Shown here: positions 27,085-61,794 of the stretch, piece after piece
Layout of the letters: every line of letters begins with the position of its first letter
Numbering within the stretch: position 1 is the first letter of the stretch
Source of the DNA: an uncultured Clostridia bacterium
Lineage (GTDB): Bacteria > Bacillota > Clostridia > Christensenellales > UBA1242
DNA: 64,000 nt
Reading direction: 5' to 3'
NCBI GenBank assembly: GCA_944345365.1
Contig: CALVMJ010000001.1
Coordinates: 3,760 to 67,759 of the forward strand
The notes under the pieces: generated by a model
Database searches by the model: none
What the model was told of the DNA's origin: nothing
Seen by the model: the letters and a program-made list of their open reading frames with translations, nothing else
Position numbers and translations under genes: made by a program

Positions 27085-27649
27085 AATAATCACTTCTGAG
27101 TTCAAAAATTGCAACATTCTCATTATTTATTCCAACTGGGCAATCATAAACTGCAAATTCAACTACTAGATCATATAGCTCATATTTAGCTAAATATGAT
27201 ATTATTTTAGAAAAGCCGGGGATATCCCAAATCTTGTCATCATCTAAGGTTGTGTGAATATTATATTCTGGCTTTTCGTAGATGTTTCTGTGGTCTGCAT
27301 TTTTGTCTGTTCTTGCAGTAAGGTCAACAATATCTGTTTCAAATCCTTTTTTTACTTTAATGTCCCCAAGTAATATTATGTTTTCATCATATTCATTTGC
27401 AGAAACACAAAGAGTTATAAAGCCTTTATACTCGATAAGCTTTTGCAAGCATTCTTCATATGAAGTTACAAAGAAAAATTTCCCAGAAGTATTTTTAGCA
27501 TCTCTTAAACAATATTCTTTTGCCGGATTTTGTAAAAAGAACAACTTAATCCTTTCAAAATCATTAACACCAAAAACTTCCTCTTTAAAATGATTGAGTT
27601 TAAGCTCCTTGATTTTCTCAATACTTTCCTTTTTTGTTTTTACATACAT
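27083..27649 (-). CDS. hypothetical protein (188 aa)
   Basis: ORF with GAGGA RBS; no family recognised with certainty. Confidence 0.7.
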   Translation of the reverse strand: MYVKTKKESIEKIKELKLNHFKEEVFGVNDFERIKLFFLQNPAKEYCLRDAKNTSGKFFFVTSYEECLQKLIEYKGFITLCVSANEYDENIILLGDIKVKKGFETDIVDLTARTDKNADHRNIYEKPEYNIHTTLDDDKIWDIPGFSKIISYLAKYELYDLVVEFAVYDCPVGINNENVAIFELRSDY

Positions 27650-27773
27650 ATTATTTTCCTCAATAAAAATATATCATTTTTAATCAAAAAAAACAAATAA
27701 AAAGTATTGATTGGTTCTTTTTGTGGATTTAATTGTTTTTTTATTAAAAAAATAAAAATATTTATTAAAATTG

Positions 27774-27802
27774 TTGACAAAATGGGTGTGGTATGTTATC
27801 AT
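27774..27802 (+). promoter_or_regulatory. sigma-A promoter of tRNA operon
   Basis: TTGACA, 17 bp, TATCAT with TG extension. Confidence 0.8.
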
Positions 27803-27819
27803 AACAGCGTCGCAAATAT

Positions 27820-27893
27820 GCAGGTGTAGTTCAGTGGTAGAACCCCAGCCTTCCAAGCTGGTTGCGAGGGTCCGATTCCCTTCACCTGCTCCA
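27820..27893 (+). tRNA. tRNA-Gly(TCC)
   Basis: GCAGGTG/CACCTGC acceptor, CCAGC-CTTCCAA-GCTGG, encoded CCA. Confidence 0.93.
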
Positions 27894-27896
27894 TGG

Positions 27897-27973
<77 letters not shown>

Positions 27974-27990
27974 ACAAAAAAGACCTTTAT

Positions 27991-28067
27991 GGTGGTCGTA
28001 GTTCAGTTGGTAGAACGCCAGATTGTGGCTCTGGAGGTCAAGGGTTCGATCCCCTTCGATCACCCCA
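27991..28067 (+). tRNA. tRNA-His(GTG)
   Basis: G-1, GTGGTCG/CGATCAC, TT-GTG-GC loop, C73, CCA. Confidence 0.93.
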
Positions 28068-28097
28068 TATACTAATTTAAGTGCGTCACCTTAACAT

Positions 28098-28172
28098 TGG
28101 GGTGTCGCCAAGCGGTAAGGCCTTGGATTCTGACTCCAACATCCGCAGGTTCGAATCCTGCCACCCCAGCCA
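28098..28172 (+). tRNA. tRNA-Gln(CTG)
   Basis: TGGGGTG/CACCCCA, TTGGA-TTCTGAC-TCCAA, CCA. Confidence 0.93.
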
Positions 28173-28219
28173 GTTAATACTTAAAAACCAGTTTACATTG
28201 GCCTAACCGACAATCATAT

Positions 28220-28294
28220 TGGGGTGTCGCCAAGTGGTAAGGCACACGATTTTGATTCGTGCATCCGTAGGTTCAAATCCTGCCACCCCAGCCA
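28220..28294 (+). tRNA. tRNA-Gln(TTG)
   Basis: TGGGGTG/CACCCCA, CACGA-TTTTGAT-TCGTG, CCA. Confidence 0.93.
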
Positions 28295-28323
28295 CTTAGT
28301 TTATATTGCTATTTTTTTAATAT

Positions 28324-28399
28324 GGTTCACTAGCTCAGTTGGTAGAGCACTTGACTTTTAATCAAGGGGTCCCGGGTTCGAGCCCCGGGTGAGCCACCA
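28324..28399 (+). tRNA. tRNA-Lys(TTT)
   Basis: GGTTCAC/GTGAGCC, CTTGA-CTTTTAA-TCAAG, CCGGG-TTCGAGC-CCCGG, CCA. Confidence 0.94.
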
Positions 28400-28424
28400 A
28401 AAAACAGGTTTTACCTGTTTTTTT
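28400..28424 (+). terminator. terminator of tRNA operon
   Basis: AAAAACAGGT-TTT-ACCTGTTTTT. Confidence 0.8.
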
Positions 28425-28429
28425 GTTTT

Positions 28430-28615
28430 CCCGGGGCATTCTAATCTTCGATTAGAAAAATCACTTTGTGATTTCGAACCCGGTATCCCGGTCGGCCCAA
28501 AGCCTGCGAAGAAATGCTGGCAGGTTTGAGCCTCTTCCCGTAAACAAGTTTACCGAGGCTCTGCACCGAGCCTCGAAGTAATTACTAAATTGTTGGTGAA
28601 GAAATCTTAGTAATT
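28430..28615. repeat. GC-richer, hairpin-dense palindromic element of unknown function
   Basis: At least six stems: TTCTAAT/ATTAGAA, AAATCAC/GTGATTT, AGCCTGC/GCAGGTT, GTAAAC/GTTTAC, CGAGGCTC/GAGCCTCG, AATTACTAA/TTAGTAATT. Confidence 0.7.
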
Positions 28616-28713
28616 TTAAATTCAAGTGATTAAATTATATATAATGCTATTAAAAAATTGTTGTTATATATAAAGTTATAATAAGAAAAATATAATAATT
28701 TTTTCTTTTTGTA

Positions 28714-28742
28714 TTGACTTGTTAAAAATTTAGTGTTATACT
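28714..28742 (+). promoter_or_regulatory. sigma-A promoter
   Basis: TTGACT, 17 bp, TATACT with TG extension. Confidence 0.75.
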
Positions 28743-28765
28743 AAAACAGTATTAAAGGAGGAAAA

Positions 28766-29455
28766 ATGAAAAATATTAATTGGGGAACACCAGAAGAAGC
28801 AACACAAAAACTTTTTAGTTATGTAACCACAGGTGTGGAACTTGGAAAATTAAAACCGGTTGTTTGTGCAAAGTCTGCAATGGTAGATGCGAGGGATCCA
28901 AGGCCAGAAGAAATTGGCAAACCTCTTCAAGTTTGGACAAATGGTAAATTGGAGGCTAACAGCAACTATATTGTTAAAGAAGATGACAAAATTTTGACTA
29001 CACTCAATCAAGATGGCTCTGCTAAACTTGATGAATATGGTCATGCAAACGAATATTTAATGCCGGCAAAAAAGCTTGCGTCAAGATATCCAAAAAAGAT
29101 TAATGGACATTATGTGGCAGACAATACTCCAAGTGTTATGGTTAAGTTGTCAGATTCCATTATTCCAGAGGAAGGAATTACTGTTGTTCCTCCTGGTTGG
29201 TGGGGTTCTACTGGAACATTGCATAAAGGTGGAGCTATTATGCTTCCATTTGATCCAAATCGTTCCAAGGAAGGTCAGGTTTGGGCATGGAACAAAGAGG
29301 GTGCAAATAAATTAGACTGGTATCCTAATAATGAGCCTTGGACATATTCAGAATGCGATAAAAATGGAACTTTCAAAGATCCGACTTTAAGAAAATCGTT
29401 TGGACAAAATGGAGAATTTCAAGGAGATCCGTACTCTTCAAAGAGTAAAGAATAA
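28766..29455 (+). CDS. hypothetical protein (229 aa), possibly PGDYG-like
   Basis: Own promoter, AAGGAGG RBS and terminator; family resemblance is inference only. Confidence 0.75.
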   Translation: MKNINWGTPEEATQKLFSYVTTGVELGKLKPVVCAKSAMVDARDPRPEEIGKPLQVWTNGKLEANSNYIVKEDDKILTTLNQDGSAKLDEYGHANEYLMPAKKLASRYPKKINGHYVADNTPSVMVKLSDSIIPEEGITVVPPGWWGSTGTLHKGGAIMLPFDPNRSKEGQVWAWNKEGANKLDWYPNNEPWTYSECDKNGTFKDPTLRKSFGQNGEFQGDPYSSKSKE

Positions 29456-29468
29456 AAGTATTCAAAAC

Positions 29469-29499
29469 AAAAAAACAGCTCTTATGAGCTGTTTTTTTT
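29469..29499. terminator. bidirectional terminator
   Basis: AAAAAAACAGCTC-TTAT-GAGCTGTTTTTTT. Confidence 0.85.
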
Positions 29500-29521
29500 G
29501 GAGTTATGGTTAAAGAAACGG

Positions 29522-58305: not shown

Positions 58306-59404
58306 AAAAATCAAATTTGAAAAATCTTCTTTTATTGTTTGTTTGCTTGTAATTTTGCTTGTGGCTTTTGGTTGCATTATGGTTTACAGTGCAAGTATGT
58401 ATTCTGCTCAATACCATTTTGGAAACTCAAAGTTCTTTCTTTATAAGCAAATCTTAGGAGCAGTACTTGGGCTTGCTCTTATGATTTTTTTTGCTTTTTT
58501 TGACTATCATTCATTAAAAAAGTTTAGGTGGATTGCTTTAATCGTAACAACAATTTTACTTGTCTTGGTTTTTATCCCAGGAATAGGAGTGGAAAGTTAT
58601 GGAGCAAAAAGATGGGTGAGTATTTTAGGTTTTTCAATTCAACCATCAGAAGTTGCCAAATTTACCTTGGTTTTGTTCTGTGCAAGTTACCTTTCCGACA
58701 ATCACGAAAAAATAAAAAACTTTAAAACATTGCTCCCAGTGGTGTTCGTAGCAGGAGCTCTTTGCCTTTTAGTTATTTTAGAGCCAAGTATGAGTGTGAC
58801 GATGTGTTTGCTTTTGATAACATTTTTTATGCTTGTTGCAGGAGGAATAACAAAAAAACACACCATAATGTTTTCTATTCCAGCCGTTTTGGCTGTTCCA
58901 GCATTAATAATCGCAGAGCCTTACCGTCTAAAACGACTTTTTGCCTTCATAAATCCTTGGGCTTCTCCTCAGGGGGAAGGATTTCAACTTATCCAGTCGC
59001 TATACTCACTTGGCAATGGGGGGTGGTTTGGAGTTGGCCTTTTTGCATCCAGACAAAAATATCTGTTTTTGCCTTTTGCTGAATCTGATTTCATATTTTC
59101 TATAATAGGAGAGGAATTAGGGTTTGTGGGCGTGACAATGGTCATCTTGGCATTTTTGACGCTAATATATTTTCTCATTAAAATTGCTTTAAACGCCAAA
59201 GACAGATTTGGTGCTTTGCTTGCAAGTGGAGTCGCCTTTGTAATTGGAGTTCAAACGCTTCTAAATATAGCCGTTGTTACCGGCTCAATTCCACCAACAG
59301 GGTTGCCACTTCCGTTTATTTCAAGTGGTGGCACTTCCGTTATGATGTTTATGGCGGGGATTGGGGTGTGTTTGAATGTTGCAAGACAGAGTAAGAATCA
59401 ATAA
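58286..59404 (+). CDS. ftsW: SEDS peptidoglycan polymerase FtsW/SpoVE
   Basis: GAKRW, IQPSE.AK, FLPFAESDFIF, TG.PLPFIS.GG; GTG 58286 after AAGGA is the probable start. Confidence 0.93.
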   Translation: MKVLKNKKIKFEKSSFIVCLLVILLVAFGCIMVYSASMYSAQYHFGNSKFFLYKQILGAVLGLALMIFFAFFDYHSLKKFRWIALIVTTILLVLVFIPGIGVESYGAKRWVSILGFSIQPSEVAKFTLVLFCASYLSDNHEKIKNFKTLLPVVFVAGALCLLVILEPSMSVTMCLLLITFFMLVAGGITKKHTIMFSIPAVLAVPALIIAEPYRLKRLFAFINPWASPQGEGFQLIQSLYSLGNGGWFGVGLFASRQKYLFLPFAESDFIFSIIGEELGFVGVTMVILAFLTLIYFLIKIALNAKDRFGALLASGVAFVIGVQTLLNIAVVTGSIPPTGLPLPFISSGGTSVMMFMAGIGVCLNVARQSKNQ

Positions 59405-59418
59405 ATTTAAAATTTTTG

Positions 59419-59447
59419 TTGATTTACAATTTTTATTTTGATATACT
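59419..59447 (+). promoter_or_regulatory. sigma-A promoter of first cargo gene
   Basis: TTGATT, 17 bp, TATACT with TG extension. Confidence 0.7.
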
Positions 59448-59468
59448 TTAATTACAAAGGAGAAAATT

Positions 59469-60014
59469 ATGAGAAATTATTTTATAATACATGGGACATT
59501 CGGTCACAATAAAGAAAATTGGTTCCCTTGGCTTGAGAATAAATTAATTAAGAAAGGAGAAGTTTTTAATTTAAATTATCCCACTCCTGAAAATCAATCA
59601 TTCGAAAGTTGGTCAAAAGTTTTAGATAAATATAAAGATAAAATCACAAGCGAAACAGTATTTATTTGTCATAGTATTGGTTGTATCTTCTTGATTAAAT
59701 ATTGCATTTTTAATAAGATAAAGATAGATAAAGCTATTTTTGTTAGTGGTTGTAATAACTATTATTTTGATCCTAAATTTGATGAAATAAACAAAGATAT
59801 GTATACTGATAGAATTTCGGAATTTAAAAATTATTGTGACAATGTTATTTGTTTTTATTCAAAAGATGATCCTTATATAAAATTTAATCAACTGCAAATA
59901 TTTGCTCATTCTGTTTATGCTATACATAAAATTTATGAACATGCAGGACATTTTAATGAAAAGGCGGGCTATAAAAAGTTTGAAGATATTTTACCTTATA
60001 TTTTTAGCAAATAA
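59469..60014 (+). CDS. RBBP9/YdeN-family alpha/beta hydrolase
   Basis: IIHG.FG....NWFPWL, CHSIGC, SKDDPY, AGHFN. Confidence 0.88.
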   Translation: MRNYFIIHGTFGHNKENWFPWLENKLIKKGEVFNLNYPTPENQSFESWSKVLDKYKDKITSETVFICHSIGCIFLIKYCIFNKIKIDKAIFVSGCNNYYFDPKFDEINKDMYTDRISEFKNYCDNVICFYSKDDPYIKFNQLQIFAHSVYAIHKIYEHAGHFNEKAGYKKFEDILPYIFSK

Positions 60015-60037
60015 AAAAGTATTTAGTGCATTAACTC

Positions 60038-60175
60038 GTGGTAACGGGTAGCATCCCGCCAACAGGTCTGCCACTTCCCTTTATTTCAAGTGATGGAACT
60101 TCCGTTATGATGTTTATGGCTGGGATTGGCGTGTGTTTGAATGTGCTTTGGCAGAGTAATAAGAATAATATTTAA
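60038..60175 (+). pseudogene. orphan copy of ftsW 3' end (in frame, no start codon)
   Basis: Reads VVTGSIPPTGLPLPFISSDGTSVMMFMAGIGVCLNVLWQSNKNNI*; 35 of 36 residues match FtsW VVTG...CLNV. Confidence 0.95.
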
Positions 60176-60279
60176 TAAAAGGTAAAAGTACACAAATTGT
60201 TTTTAAATTATATGCTTTTTCTTAATTGCTGTGATATATTAAAAAGCGATGGATATTATTAATTGGCGTTGGGGGATTT

Positions 60280-60924
60280 ATGAATAAACAAATGTTGGAA
60301 ATATTAAAAAATTGCAAATGTTTTATATTTGATTTTGACGGGACTTTGATAGATTCGGAGCCTTATCATATGAAGGCTCATAACATGGTGATGTCTTCCA
60401 TTTTGAAGAAAGAAATTCATTTAAATAACATTAGTTTTCAAAAATATTTAGGAAAAAACGACGAAGAGATTTATAATCTGTTTAAGGAAGAGAATGGTGT
60501 GGATTTTGATATAAAAGATGCTGTGCTCAAAAAACAAATTGTGGCCCGAGATTTGTTGCTAGATAATAAAGTTGAGATTTTTGATTATTTTTTTGAGGTT
60601 GAAAAGTTGAAGAACAAGCAAAAAAAATTTTATATATTATCCAATCAATGCAAAATGATATTAGAAGATGTTTTAAAATCTAAAAAAATTCTTAATAAAT
60701 TTCAAAGAATATTTTGCTTGCCAGAAATGAAAATATTGAAAAAATATTTTCTTGAAAATTTTTCAAAATATATTAAAGATGCTGACTTTTGTGATGTTGT
60801 ATTATTTGAGGACTCGGCATCGACCATTGATGTCGCTCATAAGTTAGGAATGAAAACAATAGGAATTGAAACAAAAATGAATGAGGATAAAATTAAAAAT
60901 TCAGACTATTTAATAAAGATTTGA
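60280..60924 (+). CDS. HAD-superfamily phosphatase (beta-PGM-like)
   Basis: FDFDGTLIDSE motif I, LSN motif II, FEDS motif IV. Confidence 0.88.
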   Translation: MNKQMLEILKNCKCFIFDFDGTLIDSEPYHMKAHNMVMSSILKKEIHLNNISFQKYLGKNDEEIYNLFKEENGVDFDIKDAVLKKQIVARDLLLDNKVEIFDYFFEVEKLKNKQKKFYILSNQCKMILEDVLKSKKILNKFQRIFCLPEMKILKKYFLENFSKYIKDADFCDVVLFEDSASTIDVAHKLGMKTIGIETKMNEDKIKNSDYLIKI

Positions 60925-60967
60925 AATTTATTGAGAGAAATTTTACTAAATTATAGTGTAATAATTT

Positions 60968-61074
60968 GCTGTAACCGTCTCTATTGCACAAAAGTTTGTT
61001 ACTTCCATTCTTATTAAGTGGCAGAACTTCCTTTATGATGTTTATGGCTGGGATTGGCGTGTGTTTGAATGTTG
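60968..61074 (+). pseudogene. second, decayed orphan copy of ftsW 3' end
   Basis: GCTGTAACCGTCTCTATT aligns to GTTGTTACCGGCTCAATT; ~2-nt deletion; 61033-61072 identical to 60105-60144. Confidence 0.9.
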
Positions 61075-61093
61075 TTAAGGGGAAATTAGGGTA

Positions 61094-61122
61094 TTGACTC
61101 TTGTAATTTTCTGTGTTATTAT
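61094..61122 (+). promoter_or_regulatory. sigma-A promoter of HD gene
   Basis: TTGACT, 17 bp, TATTAT with TG extension; GAGGAG RBS. Confidence 0.75.
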
Positions 61123-61143
61123 AAGAATCAAGAGGAGTAAAAA

Positions 61144-61794
61144 ATGAAAGAAAAAAATGTTATTGAGTTTTATGTGCTTTGCAATAAATTAAAAGATGTT
61201 GTTAGGACAGGTTGGAAAAATTGGGGAGTTAACCGATTTAGAGTTGAAAGCATAGCAGAGCATATTTATGGGGCGCAAATGCTTGCTATTGGTATGTGGT
61301 CAGAGTTTAAATATGATATTGATATAGCGAAAGTTTTGACCATGCTTGCTGTGCACGAAGTTGAAGAAATTGTTATAGGGGACTTGACACAATGGCAAAT
61401 AACTAAAGATGAAAAATTAATTAAAGGTAAAGAAGCCGTAAGGAAGGTTTTTTCTAAATTAGGGAATGCTAAGAAATTTGAAGATTTGATTGATGAATTT
61501 AATGCAAAACAAACGAAAGAAGCTAAATTTGCCTATTTCTGCGATAAATTAGAATGTGATCTACAAAGTAAGATCTATGATGAAGAAGGTTGTGTTGATT
61601 TAAACAATCAAGAAAACAATAATTCGGCTAAGGATAAAGATGTTAAAGAAATGTTAGAAAATGGTTATTCTTTTTCTAAGATGTGGCAAACTTTTGGACT
61701 TAAAAAGTATAATTATGATGATAATTTTGCAAATGTTTCAAAATATGCTATGGGAGTTGATATTTTAAGAGAATCCAAAGATAAACAAAAATAG
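61144..61794 (+). CDS. HD-domain hydrolase (YfbR/HDDC2-like 5'-deoxynucleotidase family)
   Basis: LKD.VRTGW, ESIAEH, HE..E...GD, DKLE. Confidence 0.82.
   Translation: MKEKNVIEFYVLCNKLKDVVRTGWKNWGVNRFRVESIAEHIYGAQMLAIGMWSEFKYDIDIAKVLTMLAVHEVEEIVIGDLTQWQITKDEKLIKGKEAVRKVFSKLGNAKKFEDLIDEFNAKQTKEAKFAYFCDKLECDLQSKIYDEEGCVDLNNQENNNSAKDKDVKEMLENGYSFSKMWQTFGLKKYNYDDNFANVSKYAMGVDILRESKDKQK

Follow-up and report, generated by a model that had tools for sequence, protein, structure and literature searches.

Gene-less modular units with inverted T-arm copies behind tRNA genes of an uncultured Clostridia bacterium

Elements that target tRNA genes with a crossover in the T-loop include tyrosine-integrase islands, prophages and tycheposon-type islands with piled-up partial tRNA repeats. 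Here we describe a gene-less unit of 143 bases that lies behind tRNA-Lys(UUU), at positions 28430-28572 of a 64,000-nucleotide stretch of DNA (the window, to which coordinates refer unless stated otherwise) from an uncultured Clostridia bacterium (contig CALVMJ010000001.1 of assembly GCA_944345365.1). The closest described objects are the microCIMEs of Streptococcus salivarius, gene-less elements of 130-220 bp that are flanked by attachment (att) sites, are relics of known parent elements next to integrative and conjugative elements (ICEs) or integrative and mobilizable elements (IMEs), and lie at the protein genes rpmG, rpsI and fda, with the most decayed copy farthest from the target (PMC7563491). 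An earlier note, made from the letters of the window alone, had drawn attention to an inverted copy of the tRNA-Lys T-arm that is split by two hairpins just past the terminator. We found that this inverted copy is the left arm of a modular unit, which belongs to an apparently undescribed tRNA-linked family whose arms are copied from the tRNA and which is common in the genus; our literature search found no description of such a family.

The unit behind tRNA-Lys(UUU)

The tRNA-Lys(UUU) gene (28324-28399; ARAGORN, anticodon ttt; Rfam tRNA model, 69.7 bits) is the last of six genes in a Gly-Arg-His-Gln-Gln-Lys tRNA operon with a promoter-like site at 27774-27802 and lies, like all features of the unit, on the plus strand. 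Its T-arm (28372-28388), consisting of CCGGG (28372-28376), the T-loop TTCGAGC (28377-28383) and CCCGG (28384-28388), is the template for the arms of the adjoining element. The gene is followed by an intrinsic terminator (28399-28429, from a terminator scan and folds), an A/T-flanked hairpin with 3 G-C pairs only (28399-28423 by the scan) and a T-run; in the folds, this terminator forms the loop of a large palindrome made by the tRNA and the mirror arm.

The mirror arm comes in two halves. The first, A' (CCCGGGGC, 28430-28437), is the exact reverse complement of GCCCCGGG, tRNA positions 59-66 (T-loop GC, the 3' strand of the T-stem and 1 further nucleotide), and the second, B' (CGAACCCGG, 28475-28483), is that of the 5' strand of the T-stem plus TTCG, tRNA positions 49-57. 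Between them, two perfect 7-bp hairpins evident in the sequence and in folds, hp1 (TTCTAAT-CTTCG-ATTAGAA, 28439-28457) and hp2 (AAATCAC-TTT-GTGATTT, 28458-28474; with structural equivalents in other units), interrupt the inverted copy at A58. All 18 nucleotides match in order and the insert consists of two perfect hairpins, as the earlier note had read them; the single A/T at either edge of the insert alone is ambiguously assigned, with (T)CGAACCCGG at 28474/28475-28483 being the reverse complement of CCGGGTTCG(A). The ATT at both ends of the insert, which the same note had singled out, does not recur in other copies.

Three further parts, which that note had omitted, complete the unit. After a 2-nt loop comes B (TCCCGG, 28486-28491), which repeats the tRNA directly as far as nucleotide 4 of the T-stem. 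B is able to pair with B' (CCGG/CCGG) and was found in every type-1 unit, the kind of unit defined by the core that follows. This type-1 core of 75 nt (28492-28566), supported by the copies behind tRNA-Val and tRNA-Ser, alignments, covariation and matches of covariance model R1, contains TCGGCCC, a variable region with CCTGCGAAG, then CTGGCAGGTTTG (28517-28528), a variable covarying hairpin (28528-28561) and TGCAC. It sits where T-loop nucleotides 53-55 of a pseudo-T-arm would be, and TCGG together with CCGA can close it. The last part, CGAGCC (28567-28572), is what remains of a direct repeat that copies the tRNA starting at C56 of the T-loop. The Val and Ser units have this repeat at full length, as far as CCA and the terminator, and at the Lys locus it is cut down to these six letters. 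On the tRNA strand, a full unit runs from the terminator through A', which is antisense to the 3' strand of the T-stem, then zero to two hairpins, B', a short loop and B to an exchangeable structured core between the T-loop halves TCG and CGA, and closes with the tRNA 3' end to CCA and a copy of the terminator. This anatomy is observed directly. These six letters, which the Lys and Val T-loops have in common, are all that follows the Lys core, which suggests that this core was copied from the Val-type unit.

The match between mirror arm and tRNA is not due to chance, because arms fit their own tRNA far more often than foreign ones and because the three loci with the core each carry the arms of a different tRNA. 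An exact reverse complement of the tRNA's own 9-mer of T-stem 5' strand plus TTCG was found within 250 nt downstream for 4 of 34 tRNAs, as against 5 of 1098 pairings of a tRNA with a foreign arm; for the 8-mer A', the same-genome control gave 5 of 34 and 7 of 1098.

Downstream of the unit, 28766-29455 holds a 229-aa open reading frame (ORF) with no Pfam match; the intergenic region upstream of this ORF is strongly divergent between strains whose protein is identical.

Copies, relatives and structure

The earlier note had proposed looking for other tRNAs with inverted T-arm copies that match their own neighbor. Indeed, such copies were found at Val, Ser and other tRNAs. The type-1 core has four copies in this 0.9-Mb gut Clostridia genome, every one directly behind a tRNA (one at Lys-ttt, one at Val-tac and two at Ser-gga), and the core pattern had 4 matches in the genome where a control pattern had 0. 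The core behind tRNA-Val(UAC) is 87% identical to the Lys copy, while the two behind tRNA-Ser(GGA) stand in tandem and are 75-83% identical. In each of these own-genome units, A', B', B and the distal repeat have the sequence of the local tRNA: the arms are TATAGGGC, two hairpins and CGAACCTAT in the Val unit, and CACAGGAT, hairpins and CGAACCTGC in the Ser unit. Agreement of the A'-equivalent arm with the local tRNA extends over Val, Ser, Lys-ctt, Gln, Ser-cga, Ile and Tyr units. The note had also reasoned that an unchanged element at non-tRNA sites would make the match coincidental; the conserved part was found only behind tRNAs, and the arms vary with the tRNA.

The direct repeat, with which most copies end, begins at CGA of the T-loop and extends to CCA plus the terminator (48 nt in the Val unit, where it reads CGAGCCC...CCA plus terminator, and at least 21 nt in the Ser unit), and a repeat from CGA to CCA is the classic att identity block of the T-loop type. 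A scan of all 36 tRNAs of the genome placed units or mirror copies at about 12 of them (Val, Lys-ttt, Ser-gga, Lys-ctt, Asn, Phe, Ile, Gly-gcc, both Glu, Trp and Leu-aag). Units range from 73 to 330 nt in length, most without integrase or cargo, and where 2-3 of them form an array, the distal ones are truncated or degenerate. Behind tRNA-Asn there are three tandem units of 117 nt each. In an Asp-Phe-Thr-Tyr operon, 2.3 tandem units of 73 nt lie between Phe and Thr (contig C16, 15106-15316, minus strand), each ending in GGTTCGATTCCACCTTAGGGCACCA, and the stretch contains no terminator.

To establish the distribution of the core, we scanned 185,579 species genomes and metagenomes with the core pattern and then applied the covariance model. 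The type-1 core was found only in Clostridia, namely in the genus itself (genomes G007 and G197, with a variant in G017) and in about 15 metagenome-assembled genomes (MAGs) and contigs from gut and rumen, where it follows Ser(UGA), Ile(GAU) or Tyr(GUA) and the arms match the tRNA every time. Of 399 genomes sampled across the class, 2 were positive, both of this genus. Where the core pattern matched in phyla of high GC content, among them Rhodobiaceae and Acidobacteriota, the match lay inside a coding region and was discarded as chance. BLAST with a 97-nt core query had returned no match in 60 relatives, a problem of sensitivity, as the covariance model later matched G007, G197 and the variant in G017.

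The syntenic tRNA-Lys of congeners shows the site in several states: empty (L106 and L109), with the same architecture made of unrelated hairpins and other cores (L105, L107 and L110), or with the mirror arm only (L116 and L122). The Gln tRNAs of L123 and L128 are followed by a contiguous inverted T-arm with no hairpins. Presence/absence polymorphism is also seen directly in L138, a strain from another sample, in which the downstream protein is 100% identical and 62 unrelated AT-rich bases stand in place of the unit; the other assemblies checked are identical or break inside the unit, so that L138 alone is informative. There are at least 5 core types, and some units are coreless. Core exchange is equally a direct observation: cores are modules bounded by TCG and CGA, and the Lys site that carries type 1 here carries others in congeners. 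The Ser unit stands at tRNA-Ser(GGA) in this genome and at tRNA-Ser(UGA) in congeners, and since the two tRNAs have only the T-arm plus 20 of 21 nucleotides of the 3' end in common, docking follows the T-arm/3'-end segment.

Cargo was found inside two units, a 332-aa lipoprotein-like ORF with no Pfam match in L038 (579-1577) and a small ORF of about 160 aa in L059 (3600-4090). In L046, a tyrosine integrase/Xis element lies directly behind the pseudo-tRNA end of the unit, which appears to have served as its attachment site; integrase or prophage ends adjoin units only there and in L057, L091 and L098. The tRNA-proximal regions are variable islands in this genus.

Structure is conserved where sequence is not. 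The hairpins at the positions of hp1 and hp2 are unrelated in sequence between units but stay paired, perfectly so at the position of hp1, and hp1 of L105 differs from that of L116 by a compensatory T-A to C-G change. The core hairpin varies from 11 to 42 nt, its pair 2 being TA, AT, CG or GC and its pair 4 CG, GC or AT. About 35 core nucleotides are invariant (TCGGCCC, CCT.CG, CTGGCAGGTTTG and TGCACCGA); the core can be drawn as a three-way junction closed by TCGG/CCGA, a model in which the invariant strands cannot covary. Unit regions contain 37 stems of at least 7 bp as against 11 in shuffles, and fold z-scores range from -4.6 to -8.1. The read-through of tRNA-Lys into its unit is predicted to fold at -115 kcal/mol (z = -8.1), with the T-arm of the tRNA paired to A' and B', as the earlier note had considered possible, and hp1 and hp2 branching off, a junction that would apply to a read-through transcript and to single-stranded DNA alike. 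In the complete Val unit, A' is predicted to pair with the distal copy and so to enclose everything.

Several observations touch on these loci from the side. Five contigs of the MAG (C4, C5, C8, C12 and C14) start at a tRNA, less than about 350 nt from the contig end, and in C5, C8, C12 and C14 a trailing unit or mirror copy follows that tRNA; other assemblies of the species end inside the T-arm of tRNA-Lys or inside the core (L137, L139 and L141). Repeats at tRNAs appear to fragment short-read assemblies. In a rumen Clostridia MAG (L034, 2250-2629), the whole 5' part of a tRNA-Ile runs into the type-1 core inside the T-loop and the copy closes with the 3' end of a different tRNA-Ile, its acceptor strands being unpaired, with a second broken copy upstream; this arrangement is evidence that a tRNA gene copy can harbor the core and be whole in other respects. 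Elsewhere in the genome, a GC-rich four-way junction of 98 nt with a perfect cloverleaf-like form stands between a lipoprotein gene and ligA (contig C1, 112160-112260); it folds better on the plus strand (-75 versus -64 kcal/mol) and on inspection showed no T-arm-derived arms and no likeness to the tRNA units. Finally, single-gene cassettes lie behind ftsW in the window (59273-61794), each followed by a copy of the ftsW tail. They follow the same logic as the tRNA units in that the 3' end of the gene is regenerated without an integrase, and by eye their junctions have no similarity to the type-1 core.

Explanations for the units

We favor, at a probability of roughly one in three, the explanation that the unit is a miniature gene-less cassette that, as a single strand, re-forms the T-arm duplex in the shape of a junction and is recombined in trans at the T-loop/3' end of tRNA genes. 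A unit would recombine with the tRNA gene within the identity segment from the T-loop to the 3' end, so that new units would enter beside the tRNA, arrays would lengthen and distal copies would decay. As a single strand, A' paired with A and B' paired with B would rebuild the duplex of the T-arm target, and at the T-loop one strand of this duplex would give rise to hp1 and hp2, the opposite strand to the core. The folded form would then mimic a recombination site, comparable to an integron attC or the attP hairpin of CTX phage, and the acting enzyme would be either a recombinase supplied in trans or the recombination or replication machinery of the host. We infer each of these parts, namely the single-stranded fold as active form, recombination in the T-loop and the nature of the enzyme. 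Cassette-like recombination at the T-loop/3' end is suggested because the repeat runs from the T-loop to CCA, the arrays decay, L038 and L059 hold cargo and L046 holds an integrase element. Among the three readings offered by the earlier note, a tRNA-targeting palindromic mini-element comes closest, in that the module is repeated, gene-less and tRNA-linked and its arms match the local tRNA.

Several points weigh against this explanation. We saw no excised or circular form, and no clean pair of an empty and an occupied site with identical flanks, since L138 has its unrelated bases in place of the unit. The distal ends of arrays lie at differing positions, which fits deletion or illegitimate joining equally well. 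At L105, 5 of 21 nucleotides of the distal pseudo-3' end differ from the local tRNA, which is not as simple Campbell-type integration predicts, because the foreign copy would land in the working tRNA. The A' mismatches of some congeners are not of the wobble type, so pairing is not strictly kept, and the Phe and Asn units are too small to circularize as duplex DNA. Automated counting of mismatches gave 5 G-T and 2 A-C, mostly in terminators, which leaves the folding strand unsettled. No linked recombinase was found at any of 27 loci, nor beside the units of this genome. Besides a large serine recombinase, which lies on a separate contig of 7 kb, this genome has just a single full-length tyrosine recombinase, an Xer-like one, and an integrase fragment.

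Searches for other enzymes and relatives were likewise negative. An all-against-all comparison of 445 ORFs around the 27 loci returned no recurrent neighbor protein. The 98%-complete genome had 0 matches to the IS110 DEDD recombinase (PF01548), for which control genomes were positive, and 0 to the Y1 HUH transposase (PF01797). A small (about 100 aa) GIY-YIG gene was not found in or near units; the sole match in the genome lies in a 607-aa open frame, which is by its size most likely UvrC. The reverse transcriptase of the genome (347 aa, beside a PRTase effector on the 3-kb contig C28) belongs to a complete type III-A retron, probably a defense system unrelated to the tRNA units. The unit had no blastn match in 50,697 phage and 72,556 plasmid records, and the core pattern none in IMG/VR viral contigs.

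A possible but doubtful alternative is that the units act as RNA: read-through transcription that starts at the tRNA promoter would turn them into structured 3' trailers or small RNAs, and their spread as DNA would be secondary and due to homologous recombination anchored on the tRNA. The mirror arm is antisense to the T-arm of the upstream pre-tRNA, and the minimum-free-energy fold pairs both with the terminator in the loop; possible roles would be to flag read-through precursors for degradation or processing of the RNase III type, or to lure away factors that bind to the 3' ends of tRNAs. As the Phe units are enclosed in an operon with no terminator, they must be transcribed in the tRNA sense; the Lys unit has no promoter of its own and stands behind a terminator with few G-C pairs. 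Every full unit closes with a tRNA-identical 3' tail with CCA, followed by a copy of the terminator of the tRNA itself. The invariant nucleotides are arranged around the helices of the core as in a small three-way-junction RNA, and the stability of the read-through fold agrees with this alternative. So does the state of A', which is still matched to the real tRNA in L107, where the distal copy drifted, and at the Lys locus, where it was lost. In the helices of other units, every wobble pair spotted by eye is G-U when read on the tRNA-sense strand; the B'/B helix of L038 has 2 of them, and in a Phe hairpin (CUCUU/GGGAG) a G-to-A change between units keeps the pair, with G-U on the tRNA strand.

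These wobbles, together with empty ARAGORN and Rfam results and no convincing promoter on the minus strand, leave the tRNA mimic that the earlier note had suggested for the antisense strand without support. As to an RNA in the sense direction, Rfam (15) returned only tRNAs and noise at E up to 10 over 27500-29500, with no hit at gathering score in 28400-28640, and at 8 unit-bearing loci (E up to 0.1) nothing beyond tRNAs came near the gathering score. The variety of core types, some units having none, is hard to fit to one RNA function, and folding of the Lys unit is at least as favorable on the minus strand (-79 kcal/mol) as on the plus strand (-74 kcal/mol). Once the tRNA is folded, opening its T-arm for the antisense arm is kinetically unlikely. 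An RNA model also leaves the tandem arrays, the cargo ORFs and the origin of the tRNA-matched arms unexplained.

It is unlikely that the units are inert scars, that is, microCIME-like relics made of the joined attP arms of lost T-loop integrase elements and later duplicated by unequal crossing-over, with leftover terminators as hairpins and a leftover core-type integrase site as the inverted copy. The earlier note's inverted att remnant is an incomplete description, since full units also have an ordinary direct repeat from CGA of the T-loop, of which only CGAGCC is left at Lys. Size, direct repeats and distal decay do agree with gene-less att-flanked elements (PMC7563491), and the integrase and prophage ends at four loci and the variable islands behind tRNAs of the genus are in line with such an origin. 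One core, however, is found with the arms of five tRNA species and therefore cannot be the arm of a single integrase-specific attP, and classical attL and attR sites contain no inverted copy of the target. Moreover, the pairing of hairpins and core stem is kept by compensatory changes, mirror arms persist alone in several species, about a third of the tRNAs of a streamlined genome carry such copies, and neither the phage and plasmid records nor the viral contigs yielded a match.

A bolder version of the cassette explanation, which we regard as quite unlikely, would make the units a new class of mobile cassette without protein genes that is specific for tRNA T-loops. Target recognition would be by pairing of A' and B', the arms being rewritten for each tRNA. 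Activity would reside in the conserved three-way-junction core, TCGG...CTGGCAGGUUUG-hairpin-UGCACCGA, which would be a small ribozyme or else the handle for a host enzyme with cutting and joining activity in the T-loop; the same integrase-less machinery could move the ftsW-tail cassettes.

The least probable explanation is template switching, in which direct-inverted-direct copies would result from fold-back replication at the terminator and T-arm palindromes, or from snap-back cDNA synthesis on the tRNA 3' end, and cores would be shuffled through the TCG/CGA microhomology of T-loops, all without a function or a dedicated machinery. The sequence behind the terminator does form, together with the tRNA 3' region, one long imperfect palindrome centered on the terminator loop (at Val, ATGTGAA...TTCACAT and AGTT...GTTATAGGGC), A' precedes B' as in a tRNA cDNA, the core edges fall on the universally conserved T-loop letters TCG and CGA, CGAGCC alone after the Lys core is what copying from a Val unit would leave, and the genome has a reverse transcriptase, though that of the retron. 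But random events would not repeatedly put two hairpins at the same T-loop position, and the repeatable architecture across many tRNAs and species, the conserved hairpin pairing and the invariant core nucleotides point to selection or a dedicated mechanism.

If active, the units would be smaller than any self-propagating cassette known and an example of how DNA can dock at essential tRNA genes without carrying an integrase. This bears on how streamlined gut and rumen Clostridia gain and exchange genes, on why assemblies of such genomes tend to break at tRNA genes, and on whether a programmable principle of T-loop-directed insertion exists. As RNA elements, on the other hand, the units would represent a structured, tRNA-linked RNA of a new kind, which affects a third of all tRNA genes in a minimal genome. 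In both cases, they are at present unannotated and easily mistaken for att scars or pseudo-tRNAs.

Comparison with described systems

With the bridge RNA of IS110 elements, the units share two short guide-like segments between hairpins that are complementary to halves of the target and change with it. A' and B', however, both complement the tRNA-sense strand, whereas bridge guides pair with opposite strands of target and donor, and IS110 elements generate no direct repeats like those of the units (21-48 nt); the genome also has no DEDD recombinase. From the palindrome-associated transposable elements (PATEs) of the IS200/IS605 type and from repetitive extragenic palindromes with their RAYT transposases, they differ in that the hairpin sequences change between units and the genome has no Y1 HUH transposase.

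Integron attC sites and the forked attP(+) hairpin of CTX phage offer a structural analogy. In both, imperfect inverted repeats fold as a single strand into a mimic of the duplex partner site with an unpaired or branched center, as is predicted for the A'/A and B'/B junction, and sequence varies while structure is kept; arrays of cassettes stand at one docking site, and cassettes may be empty. The units have no RYYYAAC/GTTRRRY boxes, the T-loop GTTCGAG/A being unlike GTTRRRY, and the genome has no IntI. They differ further in docking at the tRNA T-loop and not at attI or dif, in arms that copy the target itself, and in recombination that is here a proposal.

Like the tRNA-targeting islands, the units have an identity block from the T-loop to the tRNA 3' end, so that the tRNA is regenerated, and show reiterated partial tRNA 3' ends and tRNA-proximal regions that vary between strains. 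Their length of 73-330 nt, the mirror copy of the T-arm and a pseudo-T-arm split by a structured core set them apart.

MicroCIMEs are likewise small and gene-less, with direct repeats of the target 3' end and tandem accretions with distal decay, and direct att repeats from the target 3' end are present in the Val and Ser units. The phage, plasmid and viral-contig searches did not trace the interior of the unit to ICE, IME or prophage ends in accretion, and neither a parent ICE or IME nor a cognate integrase was found here. What distinguishes the tRNA units from microCIMEs is the inverted target copy, the conserved structured core with its covarying hairpins, and the use of one core type at several tRNAs.

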